In this document: in pieces, positions 17,701-59,168 of the stretch
Position numbering within the stretch: the first letter of the stretch is position 1
Layout: each line of letters begins with the position of its first letter
Source of the DNA: Stegostoma tigrinum
Lineage: Eukaryota
NCBI RefSeq assembly: GCF_030684315.1
Contig: NC_081387.1
Span: forward strand, 5,498,497-5,562,496
DNA: 64,000 nt
Direction of reading: 5' to 3'
Notes under the pieces: generated by a model
Databases searched by the model: none
What the model saw: only the letters and a program-made list of their open reading frames with translations
What the model was told of the DNA's origin: nothing
Made by a program: the position numbers and the translations under genes

Positions 17701-17816
17701 CTACAAGGGTTGTATTTGGAGCTCGGACTCAGATATGCTCATCAGTTTCAGTTCCACATTATTGTCCATGACTTCCTGCTGAAGGCGAGTGGGCCTTGTC
17801 TCCAGAATGGGATGAG
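17701..17816 (-). CDS. Gene A exon 6, cytoplasmic tail (AHPILETRPTRLQQEVMDNNVELKLMSISESELQIQPL*)
   Basis: Acceptor ttttcatttatttcag, phase 1; strongly conserved with 47170-46944 while flanks diverge. Small extra exons in the 9.4-kb intron cannot be excluded. Confidence 0.75.
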
Positions 17817-26800: not shown

Positions 26801-29800
26801 CAGTAGCAATTTAAAGGCATCTTGACAGATATATGAATAGGTGAGGAATAGAGGTGTGCAGATCACACAAAGATAAAAGGTTTTTACTTGACAAAGGAGA
26901 CGTGTCAGTGCAGGCTTTGTGGGCCAAGGCCCTAGGAGATAAAGAAACCAGAACTGCACACAATGCTCCAGCACCGAGGCTCTCCAAATGCAGTAAAATT
27001 TCTTTACTTCTATGGTCAAATCCTCTTGCAATAAAGGCCAACATACCATTCACCATTGGTTAAATGACACATTCTGCATTGCCATATTAAACATGGTTAA
27101 TTCACACACTATCCCCTCACTTCTACATTGCCCTCTCTCTCACTCTCCCTTCTGATTTTCCTTTATTCCCAATACTGGAGATCGCCTCACACTCACTGTT
27201 TCCCTAAGTTCTACATTCCGCTCTGTCTGATTCTTACCTCTCCATGGCCTTTTCCAGATGATTATCCCAAATGTAACAGCCAGTCCAGTGACTAATCCAA
27301 TTATTATTGAAAACTGGGACCATGCTCTGTTTATTTCTGGGATTTCTGAAACACATTGAGTAATATCAGTATTAGTTATGTTCCTGTATCCACACCCAGT
27401 GCACTGGGGACAATTTTAACTGATCCCACCCATTGGAAATTGATGGAATTGGTTGATACACTGCATTAAGCTGAGAGTGAAATTTCCCTGGAATTGGGTA
27501 TCTGCAGAAAGAATAGTCTCAGGAAACGCAATTGAACTTTTTCTGTTCATGTTAACATCTTTCTAGTCTTCGACAAGTAATGTTGTTACGCCTTCTTTTC
27601 GGTAATAAACCTGTGCTTGGTGTTTGAAGACCATCTGCAGGCTCTTGTGAATATTCAGAAATTTCAGTGTCTATCCAGCACCATAAGTAACAAAAAGTTA
27701 AGCAAATGATCCATCAAGCCAGACTTTTTAAACAGCCTTAAGGCTGGGACAAGGTGGTTTTTTTGGTCTCGCAAGGAATTAGGGCATCTGGGAAGCAGAG
27801 AGGCAAGAAGAATTAATGACAATGGCAGCAATAGTCATGAGTATGCTCAGTGGTGTACTTTACATTTTTTAAAGTGTTAAATTAAATTGTGGTGAAAATC
27901 ATCCAAAACCTCACTGAATGGTGGAACAGAGTTAAAAGGTAAACATAAGCACAAGCTTGCATGCACATGCACACATTGTATCAGCTCCTTACCCCACTGA
28001 TATAGCTTGGCCTCTGCCAGGCTGCTGTGTTCAATTTGGCAGGAATATTGATCCTCATCCCCAGCACTGATTTCAATCTCTTTCTGGATCTGATGGGTCC
28101 CATCATGGTTCGGTCGAATCCCCGAGGATTGTGTCTCAGACAGGACTTCTCCATTCCTTAGCCAGGTCACCTCGATGTCTACAGGATAAAATCCAGTGAC
28201 CAGGCAGGAGAGAGTGAGCGGCTTGTCCTGATGATTGGGCTCATTTCTGGAGATGAACACTTCAGGCTGAACTGTGATGGGAAAGGGTGAGAACACAAAC
28301 AATAGACAGACATTGAATAGACTAGGACAGCAGTTACATAGATCAGTGAGGTTAGATCTGAACATGGGGCCAAAACTAAAACACATACCTCTCCTTCCAA
28401 AATATTGTCTTCCAAAGTGTAAGCGTGACTTTAAACGCTCAACAAGTTCCTCTTCCAAGTGCCATTTCCAGTGCTTGTTCCATGCTTTATCAGAATCCCA
28501 TTCCTCCTTGATCTTCACTGCAAAGTGATTAGATGCAACCCATCTCATTCTGTCTGATTCTAAACTAATAAAGTCCTTTCCATCAAATCCAACATTCATC
28601 GATCTCTTAATGAAGCCATCAGCAGTGATCTCAACAGTCCTTATGAATTGCAAAATATGCACTCCTGCCAAAGATTAAAAGAGCAACAAAAATTAATTGT
28701 TCATGTAAAAGTCCCTTTAAGATATAATTGGAACTCTACGCAACAAGTTTTAAAATCAGAGATCCTCCTGCTGGCTGAGTGTTATCCTGATAGATTGTTT
28801 TGAGGGTTCTGCTACAGTAACAAGATCTTTTAGTGGAATCAGTTTTAAATGAATAGATCCATCGCCATGTGAACTAATAAGACATTTGTAACTCATTTGA
28901 CTTTGAGCCTGCTTTGCTACTCATTGCTGACTTAATTGTGGCCTTAATTTCACTTTCTTTCTTTTGCCACGAACAACCCATCACTCTTTTGTATATCAAA
29001 AATCTGTCTAACTCAGCCCAGCCTACATTCAATTACCCAGTGCATTGGAGATGACAATCAATGTATCCATCATCTCTGTACCTGTTTATTTTAAGACTCG
29101 AAGGAGGTAACATTTGGGCTTATTAGTTGATCTCTTTTTTTGCTGTGGTGACTATGATTAGTTTAGGTTCATTTTTGTCTCAGGATTTTTATTTTTGAGA
29201 TTTGGTGTCTTCTATTTCGAAGATTATAACAATTGTTCAAAACCACTTCCATTTCTTTACTTGCCATTATTAATTCCCCAGTTTTATCTCCTACATTTTT
29301 TCTGACTCTCTTCACACAGAATCCTGAGGTAGACCTGGGTATTGTGCATTCACATGCCAATGTACTAAGTGCTGTGCTCTTTTATGATTCCACTGATGGG
29401 CAGCATATGGATGAGTAATGGAAAGGGACCAAGAATTGATTCATGGCAAACACCAGAAGTAACACTGAGGGAACAGGAAGAAAAGCTGTATATGCTGACT
29501 GTAAGGCACTTTGAATAGATCGGAAAGGACCTAGGTAAGTTATCTTCCAACCAGTTGGATGACATAGAAGCTTGAGGGGAATGCTATGGCCAATCACTTC
29601 TCACTGCCACTTAAAATCCTTCAAGCTAGCACTTAGACCTTTCAAGTGGTTTGGTTATCCCACAGCTTCTCAAATTTTCACTAAACAAGTGGCCTTGCAC
29701 AGATGCAGACAAGATTGGATATTTTAAAATTGACCTTGATAAACCACTTTCTGGCCCGTGGACTTGCCCTCTTTCCCTAGTTAAAAAAAAATGCTTTTGT

Positions 29801-32800
29801 AGTTGAGTCAGCAACAGCCCACTCTTTCCCTGGCACTTAGTCTGCCTACTGACAGCTCCATCTTGAACAGAATTTTAAGGCAAGTTGCAGGTAACTTTAT
29901 CCACACCTTACAGAAAAGTAATGAGGAAAGAGTTGATGGAGGAATGAGAAAGATTTGCTCAAGGGAATAACCACTCCAGAAAGCAGGAAAGCTAGGAAAT
30001 TTGTAGCAGTCAGTTTATGTAATAAATATGTGCAGACATTTAGAACAATACATTATTAAGCTCTTATAATGACAGCTCACAAGAAAGACAAGTGAGATCT
30101 TTCATTTAGGTGCAGTTACAACATTTAAGAAACATTTGGATAGGGACATGAATAGGGAAAGTTCAGAAAGCTGTGGGCCAAGCACAGGTAAATGGGACTA
30201 ATTTAATTTGGGGAACCTGGTTGGCATGGTTGAAGCATCTGTTTCTGTGCTGTATGACTCTAGGCTGCAGACACGTTGAGAAAAGGTGAAAAGCGAATTT
30301 TTTTTTTACGTGGTCAAGCAAGTCAAGGGATAAGAGCTGTTCTGGGGTGAAAACTTGATTGGTGGGATGTAAATATGAAGTTCCAATAAAATATATTCAG
30401 GAGATGATCATGTATTTAAAGCTTCTTCTTTTACAGAAAAATGATGCTAATAGAAGATTTGAAGGAGAGAGGGACAGAATCTGAGGACTGAGAAATGACA
30501 ATGACAACCAAGACAAAGACAACGAGGCAGTCTACAACTGTACTGCACCAGCAAAAGCTTGTTCTGATGAAAGGTCGCTGGACAAAAAAGTGAACTTTTT
30601 TTCTTTCCACGGCTGTTGCTTGACCTGCTGAACATTTCCCATGGCTTCTGTTCTTATAGTAGTAGAAACTCTTATAGACACACAGTCAGAAAGTAAGCCT
30701 GAAATAGCCAAGAGTTTAACCAACAGCCTGAAGTGAGAAACCATTAAGTTGCACAAAGTAGTAAAATAAACACATTATTCACACCAGGAGCTGCATGAGG
30801 AGTCAGTTGCCAGGGTGGATCCACATGGAGGTTTGACAACTAGCACAGGGCCATGACTGAAATATTTGAATTGTTGTTTTACATATTTCTGACTGCAGCT
30901 TCACTGCTGTGCAGAAGCCAATTCCATAAGATAGCACGTATCCAGCGAAAGTTTTCTTGCCTGTTGTGTGACCAGGTACCCATTCCACAGTTGCCTAATA
31001 TAGCTGTGGTCAGAGTAACCCAAACAGTGTGTGTCTCAGCCTCACATATTGCAGTCTAACTGTGGTTGTATTCTGATCTGCTTTAAACAGGGCAGTTTGT
31101 AACAGAATCCATATCAGCGATCTTACCAGATGTTTGGTTTGTACTTTTCATTACCATTCTCAGATTCTCCCTTGCCTTGGCAGAATGTTCGTTCCCTTGC
31201 TTTGTGAGAATTTTCCAGTAATTAGCATCATACGAGTCTGTCATCCACTGCTGTAAGGAGACTGTCTGACAGGTATTACTGTCATAATGGGTCACAGGAA
31301 CTCCATTGATCATTGTTACACCAAAATACTCAGGTAGGTCAGTTGAGCCAGAGACAGCTATAAAAGCTGCAGTAAAGATTTTGTTCTCTGTAGATTTAAA
31401 CAAAAGTGAAAGGGTCAGGTTTGTTTACTTGATCAAGCAGAGCCTATACCCAATAACCCCACATCAGTGACAGGAGTCATTAAAACAGTCAAATCCACTG
31501 TCTCAATAGGCAGCTGCAATCGGTAATGGAGTCATTTGGATTTTCTAATAATAACACTCAGATTGCCACTCCACCCTTGTTTAACATAAAGCTCCATATT
31601 TCTGGCAGGAGGTTCTGATTCGGCTCCTTCCGAAATGTGGAGCCATACTTGCATCATGACAAGTCAGTACGGTGACTTCAGTGGATACCTCACAGCACGA
31701 GGAAGCCAGGTTTGATCCCACCCTTGGGTGACTGTCTAGTGGAATTTGAACATTCTCTCTACGTCTGTGCGGGTTTCCGCTGGGGGCTCTGGTGTCCTCC
31801 CATGGTCCAAAGATCTGCAGGCGAGGTGGATTGGCCATGCTAAATTGTCTGTAGTGTCCAGGGATGTGCAGGTTGGGTAGGTTAGCCATAGGATATGCAG
31901 GGTTAGGGTGTGGGTGGGATTGTCTTCAGTGTCAGTGTGGATGTGATAGGCTGAATGGCCAGCTTCCATACTGTAGGGATTCTATAACATTTAAAAAAAA
32001 GGTCTTTGGCAGTGCAGGACAGTCTTCACACAGTAGAAGCAGCCAAGGAGACGTCAATGCAAATTGAACATTGAATTCTATTTTTATCTGGAGGGGGAAA
32101 AAATGATTAGCAATCCACTTTCCCTGTTCCAATCAGAAACTGAGAATCAACTACTGTTTATATTCTGGAATAAAAGTACATTAGATTATCAAGGCTCCAT
32201 TTTACTGCAAACATGAAAGTTGATCATTTCTTGAATTCAAATTGCAAACCATAGCTTTAAATTGAGGGGTGAAAGATATAGGACGGATGTCAGAGGTAGT
32301 TTCTTTACTCAGACAGTAGTAAGGGAATGGAATGCTTTGCCTGCAACGGTAGTAGATTTGCCAACTTTAGGTACGTAAGTCGTCATTGGACAAGCATATG
32401 GATGTACATGGAATAGTGTAGGTTAGATGGGCTTGAGATCGGTATGACAGGTCGGCACAACATCGAGGGCCGAAGGGCCTGTACTGTGCTGTAATGTTCT
32501 ATGTTCTAACCAGAGGTTAAATGATTGGCTAGTCTCAGAAAAACTAAACTAAGCAATGACAGTCTGAATCGTCTGTGACCAGTAACCAGGACATTGAAAC
32601 TCACACAGGGTAATGCTTTAAGAACCAAGGACAGCATTTAATTATTATTAGTGTGATGGCCCCCCTACCCCATCACTGTCAGCCAATCACATGGTGGGAA
32701 TGAGGAAGATGGACATGTCACAAGAGATTGAGAATGGAGGCAATCTTACTCTCTTGCCTTTTGGAGGCCATCACAATTCTGTGCTGCAAGTTACTAAACT

Positions 32801-35800
32801 GTTAATCCAGAGACTTAGATAATGTCCTGGGACCTCATGTATAAATCCTATTATGGTAGATGGTGGAATTTTAAGTCAATACAATCTGAAATTTAAAAGG
32901 TCTAATGATGACCATGAAACTATTACTGATGGTCAAAAAAAACCCCATCTGGTTCACTAATTTCCTTTGGGGAAGGAAGCTGCCATCCTTATCTGGGCTG
33001 GCCTATGTGTGACTCCAGACTCAAAGCAATATGGCTGACACGTAACAGTCCTCTGAGCAATTAGCAGCGGGCAATAAATGCTAGCCTATCCGGGCAGTGC
33101 TCACATCCCATGAATGAATACTTTTTTTGAAAGTAATGTCTCATTTGTGTTTTTTCCTGCCAGGCATACACAAGAGAAGGGGTTATAAAACCAGCTGCAA
33201 TGTGTGTGTACGTGGTAGTCTGCTCTTTAATGAAACTGGCCAACAGTGTACCGGGGAGGTGATAGCCGAAGAAAACTACTTGGCTATGTAGCCACAACTA
33301 TAACTACCATGGTGACAAGAATACTTACAAGTTACTCATTAAACTCCTTTGGATACACAAAACCTATACGTCACTAGCTAAAATTCAAAAACTCAAAATA
33401 TAAAAAAATTGTACATTTCTAAACAATAATGACAGTTCACATCACACCCACAAAGTCAAAGATATTCCTGTTGTTCTGCATATTGAAAATGTTTTCAACT
33501 TGTTCTGGAACATCAATGATGAACTGGTACACTGTGGCCAGAGCCAGGATGCAAAGTAGCAATTGGCAAGTTCCGTAAAGAGACCATTATTTGGGAATGG
33601 CCTGACAATATGTGGATAGTCATTCATTTTGGCCACACAGGGACTAGCTTTGTGTATCATGACAAATCAAAAAGCATTAAGCCATGATGTCATGTGCATG
33701 CTACCTCGGGCACACATAGGGTACAAAAGTGTACCTGCCGCTGAACCCACGGACCTGGGTTTAATCCCATCTGCTCCAGAGATGTGTCATAACATTTCTG
33801 AACAGGTTAGTTAAAGAATATCAGATATATCATTTCCTCTAATTTTCTTACCACCTGCATGGGCCTCCAAGGCCCATGCGTGGCAGTGATTTCTGGAGCC
33901 AGAGATCAATGCCACGATTAGTGTGCCAACACTGACCTTGGAACATCAGTGCAGCTGTATGTGGCACAGTTATATAGCTTACTGATTGAATGCCCAAGAA
34001 CTGCTGCACTGCCCAGCAATGGAATCAGGGAAGTCAGTGCATCATAAATGCACACAAGGTACACCAGAAAGACCTCAATAGCAGAAGGAGCCTCTAAATC
34101 TACACAATGATCCATCCCACCCTCAGAAAATAGCAGAGGACCTATTATAGAGTAATACAGTGCAGAAATAGACCCTTTGGTCCAATCTGTCCATGGCAAC
34201 TATAATCCCAAACTAAACTAGTCCCTCCTGCCTGCGCTTGGCCCATTTCCCTCCAACCGTTCCTATTCATGTACTTATCTAATACCTTTAAACATCGTAA
34301 CTGCACTCGCATCCACCACTTCCCTCAGAAGTTCATTCCATACACGAACCACTCTGTGTAAAAATGTTGCCCCTCATGTCTTTTACAAATCTTTCTCCCC
34401 TGACCTTAAAAATGCCCCCAGTCTTGAAATCCTCCAAGCTAGGGAAAAGACACTAACCATTAACCTTATCTGTACCCCTCATTTCATGAATCTCAAAAAG
34501 ATCACCTCTCACCTTCCTATGCTCCAGTGAAAAAGTCCCAGCCTGTCCAGTGTATGCTTATAACTCAAACCTTCCATTCCCAGCAACATCATGGTAAATC
34601 TCTTCTGAACGGTCTCCAAATTAATAATAACTTTCCTATGGCATGGTGACCAGAATTTGACACTGTATTCCAGAAGAGGCCTCACCAACGTATTGTACAG
34701 CCTCAACATGACACCCCACCTCCATATTCAAAGGTCTCAGCGATGAGGGCAAACATGCGAAACACCTTCTTAACCATCTGTCTACACGTGACACAAACTT
34801 CAAAGAATTATATCCCTGAACTACTGGGCCTGTCTGTTCAACAACACCACTCAAGGCCCTGCTATTAACTGTTTCAGTCCTGCCCTTGTTTATTTTGCCA
34901 AAATGCAACAACTCATATTTATCCAAACTGAATTCCATCCGCCAACTCTTCAGCCCATTGACCCAATTGATCAAGACCTATTTCTAATCTGAGATAGCCT
35001 TCTTCACTGTCCACTATCCTACCAATTTTGGTGGCTTCCACAAACTTACGAACAATGCTTTCTATTTTCTCTTGTGAATCATTTATATAAGTGACAAACA
35101 AAAGTGGATCCTGTGGAACACTGCTGGTCACAGACCTCCAGTCTGAAAAACAACCCTTCACCACCACTATAATAAAATATGACGCTGGATGAACACAGCA
35201 GGCCAAGCAGCATCTCAGGAGCACAAAAGCTGACGTGTCGGGCCTAGACCCTTCATCAGAGAGGGGGATGGGGTGAGGGTTCTGGAATAAATAGGGAGAG
35301 AGGGGGAGGCGGACCGAAGATGGAGATCTTGTCTCCTGCTGTTAAGCCAGTTTTGCATCCAATTCAGTGCGCACAAGGAAGATTACAGCCTTACAATGGA
35401 TTACTTTCCAAATTTCCCATTGTTTGATAACTGAGCAACTCAACAAGCTCAATCATTGCTGACATGATGCATGTAATTTTCAGTTTTGGAGTACTTAGCC
35501 AGTACACAAAATGTCCATGGGCTATGTGCAAGTGGGCAATGTGACATCATTATTGGCTACTAGATCTCTCCAATCCAAACTGCATCTTGTTTTTGTTTTA
35601 AATTCACTTGTGGGATGTGGGCGTCGTTGGCTAGGCCAGCATTTTATTGCCCATCCATAGTTGCCCTTGAGAAGGAGGTGGTGAGCTGCTTTTTGTACTG
35701 CTACGGTCCATGTGCGGTAGGTACAGCCAGACGCCTGTTAGGAAGAGAGTTCCAGGATTTTAGCCTAATGATATATTTCCAAGTCGGGATGGTGATTAGA

Positions 35801-37769
35801 TGGGAATCTTGCAGGTGGTGGTGTTCCTATGTATCTGTTTCCCTTGTCCTTTGAGGTGGAAGTGGTCTTGTGTTTGGAAGGTGATGCCTAAGGATCATTG
35901 GCAAATTTATGCAACGAATCTTGAGGTTGGTACACACTGCTACTACCGAGTATCAGTGGTGGATGAAATGCATAAGGTGCTAATTAAGGGGGCTGTTCTG
36001 TCCTGGATAGTGTCAAGTTTCTTGAGTGTTGTTGGAGCTGCACCCATCCAGGTAAGTGGGGAGTATTCCATGACTCTCCTGATGTGTGCCTTACAGATGA
36101 AACTTTGCGGAGACGGGGGCAAGTTACTTGTCACGGTATTCCTAGCCGCTGACCTGCTGTTGTAGTCACCTGGTATTTACATAGAGAGTCCACTTCAGTT
36201 TCTGGTCAATGGTAACTTCCGAGATGTTGATAGTGGAACATTTAGTGATGGTAACACCAATGAATATCTGATTAGAATAAATGTTATTGGAGTTGGTCAT
36301 TGCCTGGCATTTGTGCGGTGCAAATGTTACTTGCCATTTGTCAGCCCAAGCCTTGATAATGACCAGATCTTGTTGCATCTGAACATGGATAATGTGAACT
36401 GCAGATACTGGAGAATCCAAGATAACAAAGTGCGAAGCTAGATGAACACAGCAGGCCAAGCAGCATCGCAGGAGCACAAAAGCTGACGTTTCGGGGATGA
36501 AGGGTCTAGGCCCGACACGTCAGCTTTTGTGCTCCTGAGATGCTGCTTGGCCTGCTGTGTTCATCCAGCTCCACACTCTGCATCTGAACATGGACTGCTT
36601 CAGCATCTCTGCAGTCACAAATGGTATTGAACACTGGGTATGTTCACTAATGATGCACACTTCTGACCTTACGATGGAGGGAAATTAATTGATGAAACAG
36701 TTGAAGATGGTTTGGCCTAGGACACCACCCTGGGGACCTCCTGCAGAGATGTTCTGGAGCTGAGATGACTGACCTCCATCAACTACAACCAGCTACCCTC
36801 ATGCCAGGTGTGACTCCAACCAGCACCAAATTTGCTCCCCTGATATGCATTGTTTGCAGTCATCTGCTCCTTTGCCTTTAGGTACCTCATTTCCCTTCAC
36901 CCTTCTCATTTTCTCTTCATCTCTCTCTCCACCTTCTTCCAAAACCATTAAATTTTTGACCCATGATTCTGTAACTTCCACCCTACGTTCATTTTCCTGC
37001 AGCACTCTGACTGTAGCCTTCACTCCAAAGTAGCTGGTGTAAAGGGCAAAAGACTGCTGCTTCCTTCAGGAGGATGAATTGGTAGTGAGTTTAACCTGAA
37101 GGTCACCACGGCCCAGGCAAAGGGCGAGATTGAGAAGGTAGATCTGTGGCGGTAACCATGGCTGATGCATGAATGAACCCAAACCGTCCAGCCATTGAGC
37201 TACCCAACAACCCGCCCCGCCCAGTTCAGCGTAAACCTCTATTTAATACCCACCATTGACGCATTCGTTTTACTTTGCAGTCAGATACATCGCAATCCCG
37301 GCGAATGAAACCTCTCCTGGCAACGCGCCTATCTACATGTAGTCCTTCCACCCTCCTCCTCCCCCCCCCACCCGTGCCCGGACTAGCCTCTGCCACTCGG
37401 TCATCCTCCAGGGCCCCATACAACTCAGATTCAATTAGTTTTGCCTGTGCTTCTTTCATCAGGGCACCAGGATATTGTATCCATGGGAACAGGATGGAGA
37501 AGGACACACACGCAGATATAAAAAAAGGGAAAGAAAACTGTCAGACACATCTAAATATTATCGCTCGGTACAGACACAAAGACAGTCTCTACAAGTTACT
37601 GCAGTATTTTGACACACGTTTCCTGCAGGCACTGACGATCCCATTCCTTATAAAATCCCAGGGATTTCCCAAACTGGAGAATGGGAGTGAGAATGAAAAG
37701 CTGACTTCTGAACTCACCAGCAGATGCCCAGGAAAAACACAGGGAGATGGAAAAAAGGATCAGCAACAT
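17701..37769 (-). CDS. Gene A: non-classical MHC class I heavy chain, 6 coding exons join(37769-37718,31387-31127,28664-28389,28271-27993,27345-27238,17816-17701), 363 aa; candidate member of a shark non-classical lineage such as UEA (lineage not confirmed)
   Basis: Exons of 52+261+276+279+108+116 = 1092 nt join in frame through phase-1 GT-AG introns. Domain order is signal peptide, alpha1, alpha2, Ig-C1 alpha3, TM, cytoplasmic tail, as in class I genes. Confidence 0.9.
17980..18780 (+). mobile_element. CR1 LINE 3' fragment
   Basis: SKFADNTK, WQMEFNLDKC, terminal ACTCTATG/ATTCTAT repeats. Confidence 0.9.
19135..19650 (+). mobile_element. CR1 LINE 3' fragment (specific to copy A)
   Basis: LERAQKKFTR, EVVETGILRAFKRNLDEYMDRKG; absent at the paralogous site near 47535. 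Confidence 0.88.
21360..21660 (+). mobile_element. Penelope-like GIY-YIG C-terminal remnant
   Basis: DSVIGQHLLDNADCAWSY motif typical of PLE endonuclease tails. Confidence 0.55.
23533..23570 (+). ncRNA. Minimal type-I hammerhead ribozyme motif in a Penelope-derived element (element about 23533-23660)
   Basis: AAGCU | CUGAUGA | A-GGGUCUAGGCCC (stem II) | GAAA-C-GUC (cleavage triplet) | AGCUU; stem I AAGCU/AGCUU is fully complementary. Confidence 0.7.
24590..24900 (-). mobile_element. CR1 LINE 3' fragment
   Basis: TRGHGFKVRREKFKRDLRGNFFKQRVVHVWN. Confidence 0.9.
24900..26920 (+). mobile_element. Old CR1 LINE RT remnants, partly shared with the gene B intron
   Basis: Degenerate GNYRSVSL, GFVKRQSCLTN, FQKAF, VPQ.SVLGP motifs; collinear with about 49900-51080. 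Confidence 0.8.
27238..27345 (-). CDS. Gene A exon 5, connecting peptide and TM (EIPEINRAWSQFSIIIGLVTGLAVTFGIIIWKRPWR)
   Basis: Acceptor gtttcag and donor G|GTAAGA; hydrophobic stretch followed by a basic stop-transfer; paralogous to 53678-53797. Confidence 0.9.
27993..28271 (-). CDS. Gene A exon 4, alpha3 Ig-C1 domain
   Basis: Acceptor tcacag and donor G|GTAAGG; 279 nt; LSCLVTGFYP, VTWLRNG, PNHDGT, YSCQIEHSSL. Confidence 0.96.
28389..28664 (-). CDS. Gene A exon 3, alpha2 domain lacking both cysteines
   Basis: Acceptor tggcag and donor G|GTATGT; 276 nt (canonical alpha2 length); motifs HILQ, GFDGKDFISL, W147. Confidence 0.95.
31127..31387 (-). CDS. Gene A exon 2, alpha1 domain (ENKIFTAAF...YDSN...YW...NQTSG)
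   Basis: Acceptor tacag at 31388 and donor G|GTAAGA at 31126; 261 nt; class I alpha1 motifs LPEY, YDS, QWM, YW and the N86 glycan site NQT. Confidence 0.93.
31665..31985 (+). mobile_element. HE1/V-SINE
   Basis: tRNA-like head and V-domain core GTGGAATTTG..TCTGTGCGGGTTTCC..CCAAAGAT.TGCAGG..GGATTGGCCATGCTAAATTG. Confidence 0.85.
32248..32508 (+). mobile_element. CR1 LINE 3' end (same young subfamily as 2772-3095)
   Basis: Near identity with 2838-3085. Confidence 0.88.
34145..35170 (-). mobile_element. CR1 LINE RT-to-3' fragment
   Basis: FSDWRSVTSSVPQ, MLRLYNTLVRPLLEYSVKFWSP. Confidence 0.92.
35170..35330 (-). mobile_element. Penelope-derived terminal fragment with a hammerhead-like motif (GACAC variant)
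   Basis: Reverse complement reads ..CCCCCTCTCTGATGAAGGGTCTAGGCCCGACACGTCAGC.. Confidence 0.7.
35600..36840 (-). mobile_element. L2/CR1-group LINE 3' portion (related copy at 56140-57000 +)
   Basis: WADKWQVTFAPHKCQAM, KAHIRRVMEYSPLTWMGAAPTTLKKLDTIQ. Confidence 0.85.
36390..36578. mobile_element. Fold-back Penelope-derived element with 16-bp TSD
   Basis: TGCATCTGAACATGGA at 36374-36389 and 36579-36594; inverted arms. Confidence 0.88.
37661..37670. promoter_or_regulatory. NF-kB consensus site in intron 1 of gene A
   Basis: GGGATTTCCC matches GGGRNNYYCC; 47 bp into intron 1. Confidence 0.45.
37718..37769 (-). CDS. Gene A exon 1, signal peptide MLLILFSISLCFSWASA
   Basis: ATG at 37769; hydrophobic core ending in an A-x-A cleavage motif; donor G|GTGAGT at 37717; phase 1 joins alpha1 as G|AG (Glu); MHC-type promoter boxes lie just upstream. 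Confidence 0.88.
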
Positions 37770-46943: not shown

Positions 46944-47170
46944 TTACATTGGAACACTGCCTGCAGGGTTTAATTTGTCTGCTTCTGATGGATGCTCTTC
47001 TTCATTTGTGGCATTACTCCCTTGCTCCAGGTCATGTGGACCATTTGACTCTCTCTGCAAGGGTTGTATTTGGAGCTCGAGCTCAGATATGCTCATCAGT
47101 TTCAGTTCCACATTATTGTCCATGACTTCCTGTTGATGGAGCGTGGGCCTGGTTCCTAGAGAGGGTTGAG
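46944..47170 (-). CDS. Gene B cytoplasmic exon (AQPSLGTRPT...NPAGSVPM*)
   Basis: Acceptor ttttcattcatttcag, phase 1; paralogous to gene A 17816 downward. Confidence 0.75.
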
Positions 47171-53100: not shown

Positions 53101-56100
53101 TAAAGTTGTTACAATAAATTTAGGTATTTTACTTTTTATGATTAAAACTGTTGAAAATTTTTATCTTGTGTCGCAGTCACATTGGCAAATTGATAACCTA
53201 AGTGGTCCATTTGGGATTCTATATGGTTTCTGATGGCTTGTGGCACATGGGGCGTGATAATCAATGCAGCCACACCCCCACGCCATTAGATCTTAAAATA
53301 ATCACAGGAATCAAAATTCAGTAGGATGCTGAATCTTCATTGTACTTGCTTTTTGGCAAGTTTATTCTTTCATAGGTAAGGAGTCCAAAACTGCACACAA
53401 TACTCCAGGATTGAGGCTCTCCAATTTTTTTTAAGACTTCTTTACTCCGATGGTCAAATTCTCCTGCAATAATGGCCAACATTCAGTTGATCTTTGGTTT
53501 GATCATACATTCCACATCACCATATTAAAACGCAGTCAATTCACTGACCATCCCCACAGTTCCAAATACCCTTCTCTCTCACTCTCCCCACTCACTGTTC
53601 TGTACTCCCAGTACAGGAGATTCCCCCACACTCACTCTGTCCCTTCAGTTCTACATTCCCCACTCTCTGATTCTTACCTCTCCATGGCTGAATCCAGAAG
53701 AGTATTCCCATTATCCCGACAATAACAGCCAGTGCACTGATCATTGATGCAGTTACGGTTCCAAGATGAAGGTATCCCACACTATTTTCTGGAATTTCTG
53801 AAACATATTTGCATAATATCAGGATTTTTTTCTCTGATCCTCAATATATTTGCAGTGTTCTGTCAGTCTAGTTTTATGCTCTTTTATCTTCCTGGAAGAA
53901 ATTACACAACATTGGGATCAATATTGCCGATATTTCCGCATGTATATTGATAGAAAGCATCCCATTTTGATTGAAGGCTAGCTCTTTGTATAAACAAAAT
54001 GTTAAAAATCCATCCCCTTATTTTTTTTCACAGAGTGATAATGTGATTCAGGGGCAGAGAGAGGTCATGGAAATGTTGCAATGAACACATTTGAGACTTG
54101 AGCAGCTAGGCTGTCACTCCATTACAGTTCCGAGAGAATGCTGCTCTGCCGAATGTTGGTGGAAACAATGCTGTGGCACAGCTGCATGGTGAGAAGGACA
54201 CTACTCATGTGTACTTTTAGAAGGACAGTATTGGGAGAAGGCCAGGCAGCAATGAAGATGCATTGAACTGTTCAATGAACAATGTTGAGAGTCAGTGAGG
54301 GTCAGTACTGAGCAAGTGCTCTACTCTCAGAGAGTGTTAGTACTGAGGGAGTGCCACTGTGTCGGGGGCAGGGAGCAGGGGGAGAGGGTGGGTGGTGGGG
54401 GTCAGAACTGAGAGAGTACCACACCGTCGAAGGGTCAGTGCTGAGGGAGCGGCGCACCGTCAGACGGTCAGTGCTGAGGGAGTGGCGCACCGTCAGACGG
54501 TCAGTGCTGAGGGAGCGGCACACCGTCAGAGGATCAGTTCGAGGGAGTGCCGCACTGTCGGAGGGTCAGTACGGAGGGAGTGCTGCACCATCACAGGGTC
54601 AGTACTGATGGAGTGCTGCACTGTCAGAGGGTCAGTACTGATGGAGTGCTGCACTGTCAGAGGGTCAGTACTGACAGTGTCACACTGTCAGTGGATCAGA
54701 ACTGAGTAAATGCTACACTATTGGAGGGTTGGTACGGGGGAATGCTGCAATGTTTGAGGGGCAGTACTAAAGTAGTTAGGGGGTCAGTTAGCACAGTTGG
54801 TTGGACAGCTGGTTTGTAATGCAGAGTAATGGCAACGTCATGAATTCAATTCCCATACCAGGAAGAATAGAGGAATCGAATATTATTTAAATGGTGAAAG
54901 GCTGCAGAAAGCTACAGCAAAGAGGGATTTGGCAGTCCTTGTTATATAAATCATAAATAAAAACTAGCATCCAAGTTCAGTGGGTAATAGGGAAGGCACA
55001 TGGGCTGTTGGTTTCAAATGTTGCATGTTGTTCAAAGAGAATAGAGTGGAAAGGTTCTGAAGAAGGGTCTAGGCCCGAAACGTCACCTTTCCTGCTCCTA
55101 CGATGCTGCTTGGCCTCCTGTGTTCATCTAGTTCTACACCTTGTTATCTCAGAGTGGAAAGGTAGGGGGGGGTTTGCTAAAACTCTCCAAGGCAGAAGTC
55201 AGACCACAATTGGAATACTGTGAACAGTTTTGTGCTCCTTATTTAGGGAAAGATATAAGACAGGCCAAAGAAAGTTGACTAGCTGATACCGGGTAAGGAG
55301 GCACTGTTTAGGAGGAAACATTGAGTATGTTGGGCTTGTACTCATTAGAATTTAGAAAAATGAGAGGTGACCTTACGGAAAAATGCAAGATTTTTCAGGG
55401 CTTGATCAGGTAGGTAGAGAAAGATTGTTTTCTCCTTGGTGAAAAGCCTTAGACCAGATTTTTTTAAATTTCAGAATTGGTTCTGCATTTAAAATAGAGA
55501 TGAGAAAGATTTTCTTCTCCCACAGGGTAGAAAATCTGTGCAATTCTTTATCACAGAGATCTGACAAGGCTACAGGAGAGCAAGTGAGGAGCAACACCAG
55601 TTAAGTCCAAAACAGGTGTCAACCTATTGAAAGTACAACCCAAGACTATTTATCCATCAAACAGAGTAATCAGCAATGTGACAGATGGGACTAAATGTTC
55701 CTGTAATAAGTAGATCAGATCTGCAGTCCTAACGTACACAATATGAAAGTTCATCACAAGCAGCTAAATAGTGATAGAAGATGCTCCACAAATACCCCTA
55801 CCTTAATGATAAGGAGGTCAGTTGATCAGGTTTTGGTCTTGTAAAGCAAAAATTGTGTGTTCAAATTCTACCTGCACTTACAAATGACTGCCTGAAGCAA
55901 GCTCCACCTGTTCTACATCGCTCAGAATTAGACTGAAAGCAACCTCTTTGTCCTGCCATATACATGGTTTTCAATCTCAATTAGAAGTCATATAGGCAAA
56001 GGTAGCCTAGATGAGGAGTTTATAGAATGTTTTCAGGTTAGAATATCATGTTCTCAAGCTGAGCAGTGGGCAGACTGTATTAGGCTTGATATTGTGCTAA

Positions 56101-59100
56101 GGTATAAGATTAATTAGTGAAAACGCTCCACAACAAGCGTTCCTTAAAGATAGTGTCCTGTGTTTGACCATCTTCAATTGCTTCATCAATGACCTTCCCT
56201 CCAATTTAAGGTCAAGATCATTGATGAATATGTAATGTTCAGTTTCATTGCTAACTCCCCAGGTGCTGAAGCAATCTGCGACCAAATACAACAAGACCTG
56301 GCCAATATTTAGGTTTTAGGTGGGGAGTGATAAGTAATATTCATGCCATACAAGCATTACGCATTGCCAACAAGAATCTAATCATTCTCTTTGATGTTCA
56401 ATGACATGACCATCATTCACCGTCAATATCCTGGGGTTACAATTTACCAGAAACTTTGCTGGACCAGTCATATAAATGCTGTGGCAGGGCACAGGTTGGG
56501 AATTCTGTGATGAGTAACTCTCACATTCTGTTTCCCCAGTGCTTGCCCCGCAAGTCACAAGTCAGCACTGTGGTAGCATACTCTCCATTTGCCTGATGAG
56601 TTCAGCATCAAAAACACTGAGGCACATCAACATCATTCTGGACAGAGTGGTCAGCTTGACTGGCATCCCATCCATCCCCTTCAACTTTCACTCCAAAACC
56701 TATACAGCATATTTGCAGTGTGTACAAATAAATATTATGCAATGCAGCAACTTGACAACAATACATGACTTCTACTAGTTAGAAGGACAGAAGCAGCAGA
56801 CTCAATGTGAACAAAACCACTTACAAGTTTGCCCTCTAAGTCACACATGCTCACTATGGCTCAACCAAGCTCCTGGAACTCCTTTTCTAACTGGACTGTG
56901 GCTGTCCCTAAACCACATGGACAACAGCAGTTCAATGAGGAAGTTCACTGCCACCTTCTAAAGGCAATCAGGGATGGCTAATAAATGTCCGTGCTGCCAA
57001 AATCGTTATGAAAGAATTTTATAAAAAAGCAGGTGGTGTGGAGGCAGGATAACATTGGGACAATAGGAAGCAATGTTATGACATTGGGAGTGAGGGGGTG
57101 GTTGGAGTGATAAGAGGCTGGTGAAAGTGTTCGTGGTATGGAGGGTGATAAAGAAATGAATGTGATGATAGGATAATGGGGTTCATGAAGGGATGGTAGG
57201 GAGTTTTTGTTTGTTCATTCACATGATGAGGGCGTCGCTGGCTAGGCCAGCATTTATTGCCCATCCCAGACGGTGTTTAAATTCAACTATATTGCTGTGG
57301 GTCTGGAGTCACATGTAGTTCAGACCAGGTAAGGATGTCAGTTTCCTTCCCAAAACAGCATTCGTGAACCAGATGAGTTTTTCCTGATAATTGACAACAG
57401 GTTAATGGTCATCAACAGTCTCCTCGAATTCTATATTCTGCCGTGGTAGGATTCAAAGCCGGCTCCCCAGAACATTACTTGGGTCTCTGAGGTAACAGTC
57501 CGGTGATAACAATAGGCAGTCACCTCTCCATGATGAGGGGATAGGTGCGTGACATATATGGGTTGAAAGACACAGAACGAGTAAGGAGGATGAGGCAGTG
57601 AGTGTTCGAAAACCTGCTGATATCATGTACAAACTGTCACCATTGATAATTCAGTTCCCTACTGCATCATACCTCACCAGCAGCATCTCGCTTCCAAAAA
57701 GATTTAAGGGGATAAGAGAGCAGGAGAAGTAAAAGAAGTTACAAAAAGAGAAATAAACAGTAGCAAAGAAAAAATAACAAAGGGAAATGGCAACATGAAG
57801 TCATCAGTCGAATGAGGGACACCATACACTCTGACTTACTATCTGGAGCCTCGGGAGAGGTTGATGAGTAGGAGAACTGCACGTAGAAAATACACTTTCC
57901 CTGTACTCCTGTTATGATATAAATGAGTCTGGTCTAGAAGTTTGCTGGGGCATATTTATAAATATCAGTATTTACTGCACCAACTAGATCCATCTTTCAG
58001 AATGCAACTTTCGTTTCTTGTTGGATTGTTTGGAAAATCCAAACTCTCAAGGATTTCATTTCTAGTTCAGCAATATGTCAAAGACTTAACTTCAGGCTCT
58101 CCCCAACCTCACGTTCATGTTGCCTTATCAGGAGAAGTAGAAGCAGGAGTAGCCATATTTGCCTATTCTACCTTTCAATACGAACCTGGCTCATTTTGTG
58201 CCTTACTGCCACTTTCCTGCTTATCCTCCAGATCCCTTGGTTACCTGAGACAACAAACTCTGTCTATTTCAGACTAAAATATATTCAGCAACAGAATATT
58301 CACATTCGCGTAGGGGACACAATTCATAATTCTTAAAGGGTGGCCATTTCTAAAGGGCAGTTCAGAGTAAGAACACCTCAGTATCTGGGGATCGAAAATT
58401 GTGGCAGTATCTCATTCATCTTCCCTTCTCAGCCATGCATGTTCTCCCGCACTCCTTCTCCCTTGCTGTCCCACACTTTCAGTTCAGTTCCTTACCCCAC
58501 TGATGCAGCTTAGCCTCTGTCATGCTGCTGTGTTCAACCTGACAGGAATATTGATCCTCATCCCCATCACTGATTTCAATCTCTTTATGGATCTGATGAG
58601 TCCCATCGTGGTTCGGTCGAATCCCTGAGGATTGTGTCTCGGACATGACCTCTCCATTCCTTAGCCAGGTCACCTCGATGTCTACAGGATAAAATCCAGT
58701 GACCAGGCAGGAGAGAGTGAGCGGCTTGTCCTGACGATTGGGCTCACTCCTGGAGATGAACACTTCAGGCTGAACTGTGATGGGAAAGGGTGAGAACACA
58801 AACAATAGACAGACACCGAGTGGAATAGGAGAACGGTTTCATTGATCAGTGAGGTTAGATCTGAACATGGGATCAAAAATTCAAACACACACCTTTCCTT
58901 TTGAGATGCTCCTTTCCAATGTTTAAACGTGATTTTAAGCGTTCAACAAGCTCCACTTCCATCAGCCATTTCCAAAACTTGTTCCAGGATTCGTCAGAAT
59001 CCCATTTCTCTTTTGTTTTCACTGCATTGTGATGCGATGCGACCCATCTCATTCTGTTCGACTCCAAACTAATGTAGTCCTTTCCGTCAAAGGCAACATT

Positions 59101-59168
59101 CATTGTTCTCTTAACGGAGCCATCTTCAGACACCTCAACATTCCTTATCCATTGCAAAATATGCTTTC
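46944..59168 (-). CDS. Gene B: second non-classical MHC class I heavy chain, 5'-partial, join(59168-58893,58774-58496,53797-53678,47170-46944)
   Basis: Same exon phases as gene A, same alpha2/alpha3 exon sizes, GT-AG junctions. No alpha1 or leader exon recognised in 59170-64000, so these are presumably outside the window. Confidence 0.88.
47625..49010 (-). mobile_element. CR1 LINE RT-to-3' fragment
   Basis: Continuous reverse-strand CR1 RT motifs and 3' tail. Confidence 0.9.
51260..51640 (-). mobile_element. Probable Harbinger transposase N-terminal remnant
   Basis: Weak similarity to the 6000-6200 Harbinger segment; heavily degraded. Confidence 0.4.
53678..53797 (-). CDS. Gene B TM exon (EIPENSVGYLHLGTVTASMISALAVIVGIMGILFWIQPWR)
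   Basis: Acceptor gtttcag and donor G|GTAAGA; 120 nt; shares the EIPE...PWR frame with gene A. Confidence 0.9.
54296..54770. repeat. 33-bp minisatellite derived from a Deu-type SINE core
   Basis: Unit GGTCAGT(G/A)CTGAGGGAG(C/T)G(G/C)(C/T)GCAC(C/T)GTCAGA(C/G) at 54433, 54466, 54499 and onward; roughly 12 units. Confidence 0.9.
54860..55570 (+). mobile_element. CR1 LINE fragment containing a Penelope-derived insert (55056-55150, 13-bp TSD)
   Basis: LEYCEQF, RGDL motifs; AGAGTGGAAAGGT at 55043-55055 and 55151-55163. Confidence 0.85.
58496..58774 (-). CDS. Gene B alpha3 Ig-C1 exon
   Basis: 279 nt; 9/93 aa differences from gene A; donor G|GTAAGG. Confidence 0.96.
58893..59168 (-). CDS. Gene B alpha2 exon, no cysteines
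   Basis: Acceptor tgacag and donor G|GTGTGT; 276 nt; about 67% aa identical to gene A alpha2 (30/92 differences by manual count). Confidence 0.95.

Follow-up and report, generated by a model that had tools for sequence, protein, structure and literature searches.

The window analysed here, a stretch of 64,000 nucleotides from the shark Stegostoma tigrinum (NC_081387.1, positions 5,498,497 to 5,562,496), carries two class I genes of the major histocompatibility complex (MHC) on its minus strand, referred to below as genes A and B. Gene A is a tandem paralog of gene B and lies 30 kb downstream of it. Leader, alpha1, alpha2, alpha3, transmembrane and cytoplasmic-tail exons, together with a class I platform fold, identify the products as MHC class I heavy chains, the partners of beta2-microglobulin, and the ectodomain exons of both genes are all open with canonical splice sites. 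Both probably encode non-classical, membrane-bound chains of a sublineage that is conserved among sharks and likely belongs to the UEA lineage. Their alpha2 domains share three arginines, R99, R167 and R171, at the places of HLA Y99, W167 and Y171. From these residues, the initial annotation had proposed a basic groove end and an anionic or non-peptide ligand.

Residues were numbered by alignment to solved class I chains and with the help of a published HLA-A2/shark alignment. Over the second alpha2 helix, from 152 to 181, genes A and B align with classical chains without gaps. Thus, R99, R167, R171 and L/H159 are numbered correctly, and a numbering artefact was rejected. The three arginine codons were located in both genes, and the remaining residue calls of the initial annotation also hold: A7, S84 and H159 in gene A, L159 (for Y159) in gene B, W152, W156, W158, M114 and V116 in both, and, at the F end, Y123/T143/K146/W147 in gene B and F123/I143/E146/W147 in gene A. 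W158 was rejected as a groove residue because on an ideal helix it stands at 180 degrees from R167 and faces out of the groove. In both genes, the cysteines of the alpha2 disulfide are replaced, C101 by Val and C164 by Leu. A classical (UAA) identity was rejected as well, since these cysteines are absent and most of the classical anchors for the peptide termini (Y7, Y59, R/Y84, T143, K146, W147, Y159, W167, Y171) are lost; gene B keeps Y59, T143, K146 and W147 and gene A keeps Y59 and W147.

Conservation of the arginine signature

The combination of R99, R167 and R171 is found in all of 17 genes that form what we call the branch. Three of them, genes A and B and a third one of type C outside the window, belong to this genome, and 14 come from 11 named shark species, which we take to represent Orectolobiformes, Carcharhiniformes, Lamniformes, Heterodontiformes and Hexanchiformes. 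Before counting, the isoforms P0007, P0011 and P0067 were left out, together with P0069, whose alpha2 is identical to that of the type C gene of this genome, and the latter half of P0061, which belongs to the cluster of P0015. Type C is the type found most widely across the sampled shark orders, and V116 is restricted to types A and B. A recent, species-specific change was rejected.

Outside the branch, R99 is present in 16, R167 in two and R171 in none of 35 other family genes, a set that does not include P0001, P0002, P0022, P0044, P0045 and the own-genome copies without a paired alpha1. Thus, the arginines are conserved in one sublineage, and the triple signature was rejected as a family-wide feature; R171 marks the branch alone. 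Other traits belong to the family as a whole. M114, W147 and W156 occur in 46/46 paired family genes and W152 in 45/46, while C101 occurs in none of the 46 and C164 in two. UCA of the spiny dogfish (AF515705) resembles the branch in lacking C101 and C164 and in having a basic residue (K) at 99; it is distant in each of the three domains and has neither R167, R171 nor K146/W147. The missing disulfide and the basic residue 99 are therefore old traits.

As a hold-out test, the signature was also followed in 29 proteins that were new in a second search. All seven proteins with the alpha1 markers Y22 and W51 have R99/E163/R167/R171, and R171 is found in none of the other 22 (one of which is unaligned at 171). 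Two sawshark proteins were found, neither with the three arginines. In the alpha2 tree, the 11 triple-arginine rows all fall on one side of a split supported at 88/92. The alpha1 domains of 10 of these 11 rows group independently, with a Shimodaira-Hasegawa-like approximate likelihood ratio test (SH-aLRT) value of 97 in a quick tree. A read-through model from Chiloscyllium contains the orthologs of genes B and A in the order observed here. Two further cases were noted. The alpha1 of the Mustelus protein P0004 is of the L036 type and carries D34, which suggests gene conversion or a shuffling of exons, unless the gene model is at fault. Locus L006, paired with L036 itself, has R99 and R167 but Y171.

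Among the three paralogs of this genome, the ratio of nonsynonymous to synonymous substitution rates (dN/dS) in alpha2 is 0.24-0.32 at a dS of 0.53-0.78. R167 and R171 are encoded by CGY codons in all three, with changes at the third positions. Codons that contain CpG are mutation-prone, and of 82 CpG sites in the flanks that arose by duplication around A and B, only 14 are shared; it should be noted that the CpG codons were chosen after the fact and that the flanks include some transmembrane and tail exon sequence. These comparisons indicate that the arginine signature is under purifying selection.

The A and F ends of the groove

In class I molecules, Y7, Y59, Y159 and Y171 bind the peptide N-terminus in pocket A, and residues 99 and 167 border the A and B pockets, as described for this site in PMC1174912. 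In the branch, Y7 is replaced by T/A/V, E63 by L, Y159 by L/H/Q/N, W167 by R and Y171 by R, with R99 on the floor. Y59 is the sole A-pocket tyrosine left (16/17 genes). Position 63, given as acidic or Gln in classical molecules (PMC8236899), is Leu in all 17. None of the branch genes has an acid at 7, 9, 24, 45, 63 or 66, and D34 occurs in one. R66, a type C residue, is present in 7/17. Counted by position only, the net charge of 13 A-end positions is +2 in types A and B and +3 in type C, as compared with -1 to +2 in the other 35 genes. Acids nearby are E/D163 (17/17), one turn from R167, and D/E58 (13/17), so that one arginine is probably paired. The basic A end of the initial annotation is retained, as a charge-reversed N-terminus pocket in which E/D163 can neutralise one arginine. 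Neutralisation of the arginines, which that annotation had named, for acids of alpha1, among the findings that would speak against it, is partial, and the net charge stays at +2 to +3.

On an ideal helix, residues 156, 163, 167 and 171 share one face and 158 lies opposite. The outer surface is marked by K157, W158, E161 and K169, each in 17/17 genes. In other family members, positions 163-171 vary freely.

The F end shows W147 and N/D77 in 17/17 genes, and T143 together with K146 in 13/17; residue 84 is G/S/N/C. The four genes that depart from T143/K146 are type A genes of carpet sharks. The difference between the paralogs that had been noted at this end is real, and F123/I143/E or N146 is found also in gene A orthologs of three other carpet sharks. 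In the rest of the family, K146 is present in 33/35 and T143 in 30/35. The conserved set corresponds to the site of the peptide C-terminus, so that the non-peptide ligand of the initial annotation is unsupported. The groove is lined by bulky aromatics, and a long-chain phospholipid is therefore the weaker part of its ligand list; tunnels of the CD1 type are lined by small aliphatic residues.

Structural comparisons relied on an AlphaFold model of alpha1-alpha2 from the gene B ortholog in Mustelus (83% identity in alpha1, 86% in alpha2). This model was used in place of the full-length P0003 model, in which alpha3 is misplaced (root mean square deviation (rmsd) >7 A, predicted template modelling score 0.56). 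Its mean predicted local distance difference test score (pLDDT) is 92.4, and it has a normal class I platform with template modelling (TM) scores of 0.86-0.90 to class I chains. Equally good matches are obtained with UGA at Z 22.3 (rmsd 2.3, 178 residues aligned), with HFE, whose values are given below, with ZAG at Z 21.9 (2.6, 177) and with classical chains at Z 21.7-21.8 (2.0-2.4, 170-176). Matches are weaker for FcRn (Z 20.6, rmsd 2.8, 172 aligned), CD1 (Z 19.2-20.2, rmsd 3.1-3.2) and UFA (Z 18.1, rmsd 2.9, 172 aligned). FcRn, HFE and CD1 are not among the Foldseek matches listed, which excludes nothing. No solved structure of this gene family appears among the best 60 rows of the structure listings. 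On these predicted coordinates, fold searches do not separate an open from a closed groove.

Gene models, cluster and lineage

The exons and the codons discussed here are collected in Table 1.

Table 1. Exons and selected codons of genes A and B and of the type C paralog (window positions, or contig C44 positions where so marked).
Feature	Position	Strand	Remarks
Gene B alpha1 exon	C44:5562657-5562917		just beyond the window end, as is the gene B leader exon
Gene B alpha2 exon	58893..59168	-	276 nt; AG/GT splice sites; exactly the interval of the initial annotation; R99, V101, M114, V116, Y123, T143, K146, W147, W152, W156, W158, L159, E163, L164, R167, R171
Gene B Arg99 codon	59143..59145	-	groove floor; basic residue 99 is an old, family-level trait
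Gene B Val101 and Leu164 codons	59137-59139, 58948-58950		
Gene B Glu163 codon	58951..58953	-	branch-invariant acid, one helix turn from R167
Gene B Arg167 codon	58939..58941	-	contains CpG
Gene B Arg171 codon	58927..58929	-	contains CpG; diagnostic of the branch
Gene B alpha3 exon	58496..58774	-	Ig C1 domain, open frame
Gene B transmembrane exon	53678..53797	-	
Gene B cytoplasmic-tail exon	46945..47170	-	end approximate; frame change relative to the gene A copy ends the exon early
Gene A leader (signal peptide) exon	37718..37769	-	
Gene A alpha1 exon	31127..31387	-	A7, Y59, L63, Q66, N77, S84
Gene A alpha2 exon	28389..28664	-	R99, F123, I143, E146, W147, H159, E163, L164, R167, R171
Gene A Arg99, Arg167 and Arg171 codons	28641-28639, 28437-28435, 28425-28423	-	
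Gene A Val101 and Leu164 codons	28633-28635, 28444-28446		
Gene A alpha3 exon	27993..28271	-	
Gene A transmembrane exon	27238..27345	-	
Gene A cytoplasmic-tail exon	17701..17816	-	ends at an in-frame stop absent from the gene B and Chiloscyllium copies
Type C alpha2 (L002)	C44:5600474-5600743		outside the window; alpha1 is L035; adds R66

The early in-frame stop of gene A and the frame change of gene B mean that both cytoplasmic tails are shortened here; branch members of other sharks have long acidic tails. The intron between alpha2 and alpha3 of gene A (28272-28388) is 117 nt long, in frame and free of stops, so that its retention would add 39 residues, several cysteines among them. The corresponding intron of gene B has 118 nt and is closed. 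Long open frames (166-258 amino acids) also run across alpha2 in five further stop-free copies. Orthologs of the window genes have RefSeq isoform models. As for other features, a tandem repeat with units of about 30-35 bp was seen by eye at 54300-54700, between the alpha3 and transmembrane exons of gene B, and short repeats recur throughout the window. Fragments at 1-1150 and scattered elsewhere (e.g. 34600-35350) resemble ORFs of retroelements of the long interspersed nuclear element (LINE)/CR1 type.

With alpha2 as a query, 26 matches were found in the genome, all on contig C44. Nineteen of them, at 51-100% identity, lie between 5.53 and 7.07 Mb, and seven are distant. Genes A, B and C, the three triple-arginine genes of this genome, stand together at one edge of this 19-exon cluster. 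By-eye matching to published nurse shark queries shows that the interval also holds UDA-like (L021/L048) and UGA-like (L022/L024, L049/L050) loci. The family members L004, L005 and L043 match, again by eye, the query Gcirratum_UCA_NODE_26056 and not the dogfish UCA. This query, from Supplemental File 10 of PMC10751288, differs from L004 at 6 of 92 alpha2 residues, as counted by eye. It has R99, no C101 or C164, and W152/156/158 as in the family, but D167 and Y171. We infer that its 'UCA' label is an earlier name for UEA; in the supplement of PMC10751288, sequences labelled UEA have 0 occurrences.

Within its account of the cluster, PMC10751288 places a single-copy UDA with multicopy UEA and UFA, and UBA and UEA are named as the two expanded families of sharks in PMC12562908. 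The family studied here is multicopy and lies in a class Ib cluster with UDA, an arrangement that agrees with the one described in PMC10751288. In homolog searches, which were word-based and of limited reach, all named hits are shark proteins (44/45 and 68/69, the remaining hit being unnamed in each case). Both the multicopy state in a UDA-containing cluster and the restriction of named homologs to sharks indicate that the family very likely corresponds to the UEA lineage. UEA is said to occur in sharks and to be absent from rays and chimaeras. Its groove is reportedly hydrophobic, with most peptide-terminus anchors lost, and it is reported to comprise three sublineages with distinct grooves. 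Compared with this description, the N-terminal anchors are lost here, T143/K146/W147 are mostly kept, the groove is aromatic and the branch is basic at its A end. Membership of UDA, UGA, UFA or UBA was rejected, as the published queries of these lineages keep both alpha2 cysteines. Moreover, the UDA, UGA and UBA queries match other loci by eye (L021, L022/L024 and L026, respectively), and the tree separates these loci from the family (99/96).

The UEA lineage is already known. The published nurse shark query, with D167 and Y171, and the triple-arginine set are separate branches, and the latter may be one of the reported sublineages, perhaps already noted; a search of the open-access literature found no paper on this arginine pocket.

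Several observations concern the cluster more generally. UGA has been described as having a single copy or few copies; here it occurs twice, the two being oppositely oriented (L022/L024 and L049/L050, at C44:6.25 and 6.78 Mb). Near-identical pairs, some of them broken (L004/L005; L015-L019), occur among the family members, pointing to recent segmental duplication or to assembly duplication. Finally, L025, L020, L023 and L026 (C44:1.10, 1.74, 10.69 and 11.11 Mb) are class I loci with intact cysteines located away from the cluster, and match UAA-like, UAA-2-like and UBA-like published queries by eye.

Candidate ligand site and alternatives

The A pocket of the branch no longer offers the tyrosine network that holds a free peptide N-terminus. 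Judging from its residues, we see about an even chance that it has become an anion site, accommodating a phosphate or carboxylate of the ligand. In such a site, R167 would pair with E163 (and D/E58) as a lid. R171 and R99 would be left uncompensated in the cavity opened by the loss of Y7 and Y159, where an ammonium N-terminus would be repelled and an anion would have to be buried. W97, W152, W156, Y59 and Y62 could stack on the remainder of the ligand, two arginines in an aromatic cradle being the arrangement of MR1. In types B and C, the F pocket would in addition hold a C-terminal carboxylate, so that their ligand may resemble a peptide whose N-terminal end is modified and anionic; in type A of carpet sharks, this C-terminal anchor is lost. 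As ligands, a modified peptide and a small anion of non-peptide nature are about equally likely. On the outside, a conserved receptor would recognise the invariant face formed by K157, W158, E161 and K169.

MR1 serves as the analogy for this anion site. Its R9 and R94 bind the phosphate of pyridoxal phosphate, according to the description in PMC12058573. As in the proposed site, arginines and an aromatic cradle in the A' pocket of MR1 hold small anionic groups, and MR1 chains (TM 0.86-0.89) rank with the classical chains in the comparison with the model. However, MR1 is not an ortholog: it carries its arginines at 9 and 94 (HLA 97) and forms a Schiff base through Lys43, whereas the branch has F/Y at 9, T/I/M at 45 and W/F/L at 97. 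By analogy, the branch may still work like MR1. Lipid binders such as UFA and UGA, CD1 and chicken YF1*7.1 are also non-classical, and UGA lies in the same cluster. In YF1*7.1, the arginines for the anionic head group are at the F end and the hydrophobic A pocket takes the tail (PMC2998441, in its description of the groove). This is the reverse of the arrangement in the branch, which makes a lipid of the CD1 or YF1 type less likely. In addition, CD1 and UFA fit the model less well than classical chains do.

Several results weigh against an anion site. E/D163 is as invariant as the arginines (17/17). Position 170 is S/L/V in 17/17 branch genes and R/K in 26/35 others; as 170 loses Arg/Lys where 171 gains Arg, R171 could be structural in a helix deprived of its disulfide. 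The closed-groove HFE ties for the best structural match (Z 22.3, rmsd 2.7, 177 aligned). FcRn and mouse M10.5 share R167, and for neither of them was a groove ligand found (PMC1174912). As to the branch itself, the support of the alpha2 clade is just under the starred (firm) threshold of the tool, and P0004 joins a triple-arginine alpha2 to a different alpha1, with a net charge of +1.

The main alternative, unlikely in our view yet deserving attention, is that the A pocket is occupied by R167 and R171. The guanidiniums of these two would replace the peptide amine, pair with E163 and D/E58 and stabilise an alpha2 domain that has neither C101 nor C164 in both genes. The molecule would then be empty or nearly so and serve as the ligand of a conserved receptor, like FcRn, HFE and M10. 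The invariant outward residues and the exchange of R/K170-Y171 for S/L/V170-R171 in a disulfide-less helix would suit such a role. There are precedents, both taken from the pocket comparison of PMC1174912: in FcRn, part of the A-B pocket is blocked by Arg167, and M10.5 combines T7 with R167 and an E63-R167 bridge, no peptides having been eluted from it. Both resemble the branch in having R167 at the mouth of pocket A. However, the bridging partner E63 is Leu in 17/17 branch genes, residue 171 is H in FcRn and C in M10.5, and FcRn keeps its alpha2 cysteines. It should also be noted that only one or two acids stand against three or four basic residues, and that types B and C retain their F-pocket residues. 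The 35 other family genes without C101 manage with Y/F/T171, and the arginines are therefore not needed to replace the disulfide. Finally, the lowest backbone rmsd values are those of classical open grooves, though AlphaFold is biased in that direction.

Ordinary peptides with acidic anchors appear improbable as ligands. Their C-terminus would sit in the retained F pocket and Asp/Glu near P1-P3 would contact the arginines, the N-terminus being lifted out. The retained F pocket speaks for this reading. The model for it is chicken BF2*0401, whose R9, R80 and R111 bind x-D/E-x-x-D/E-x-x-E peptides (PMC8926493, in the account of its motif). For both models, the Foldseek matches listed are headed by a BF2*0401 chain, which reflects backbone and sequence, not charge. 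However, BF2*0401 is a classical molecule with its arginines outside pocket A, which that account calls uncharged, whereas the genes studied here have lost residue 84 and four of the five anchors of pocket A. Moreover, the type A genes of carpet sharks lack T143/K146 and keep the arginines, which argues that the job of the arginines needs no C-terminal peptide anchor.

Neutral substitution in drifting non-classical genes, for which a birth-and-death cluster with several broken copies and the free variation of 163-171 in other members might speak, is largely refuted and very improbable in view of the gap-free alignment, the invariance in 17 genes from five orders, the kept CpG codons and a dN/dS below 0.35.

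Coming back to the anion site, a broader and rather unlikely proposal can be built on it, namely that three ancient, shark-wide class Ib genes (A, B and C) show an invariant receptor a conserved ligand of microbial or stress origin that bears a phosphate or carboxylate, as an independently evolved MR1-like system without an alpha2 disulfide. Candidates for such a ligand would be phospho-metabolites, fragments of cell walls, or peptides, either bound in reverse or held at both ends by an anion.

In the part of PMC10751288 that deals with them, the function of the shark class Ib lineages is described as unknown as of 2023, and lipid binding has since been reported for UFA and UGA only, as a personal communication cited in the review PMC12562908. 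In a cluster with fast turnover, the branch stands out by its orthologs in five orders, its invariant pocket signature and its invariant outer helix face. If the arginines plug the pocket, a solution like that of FcRn would have been reached independently. If they bind an anion, the branch would add a new way of binding ligands to the class I fold, and would be evidence that metabolites are sensed in an MR1-like manner in the oldest living group that possesses an MHC.

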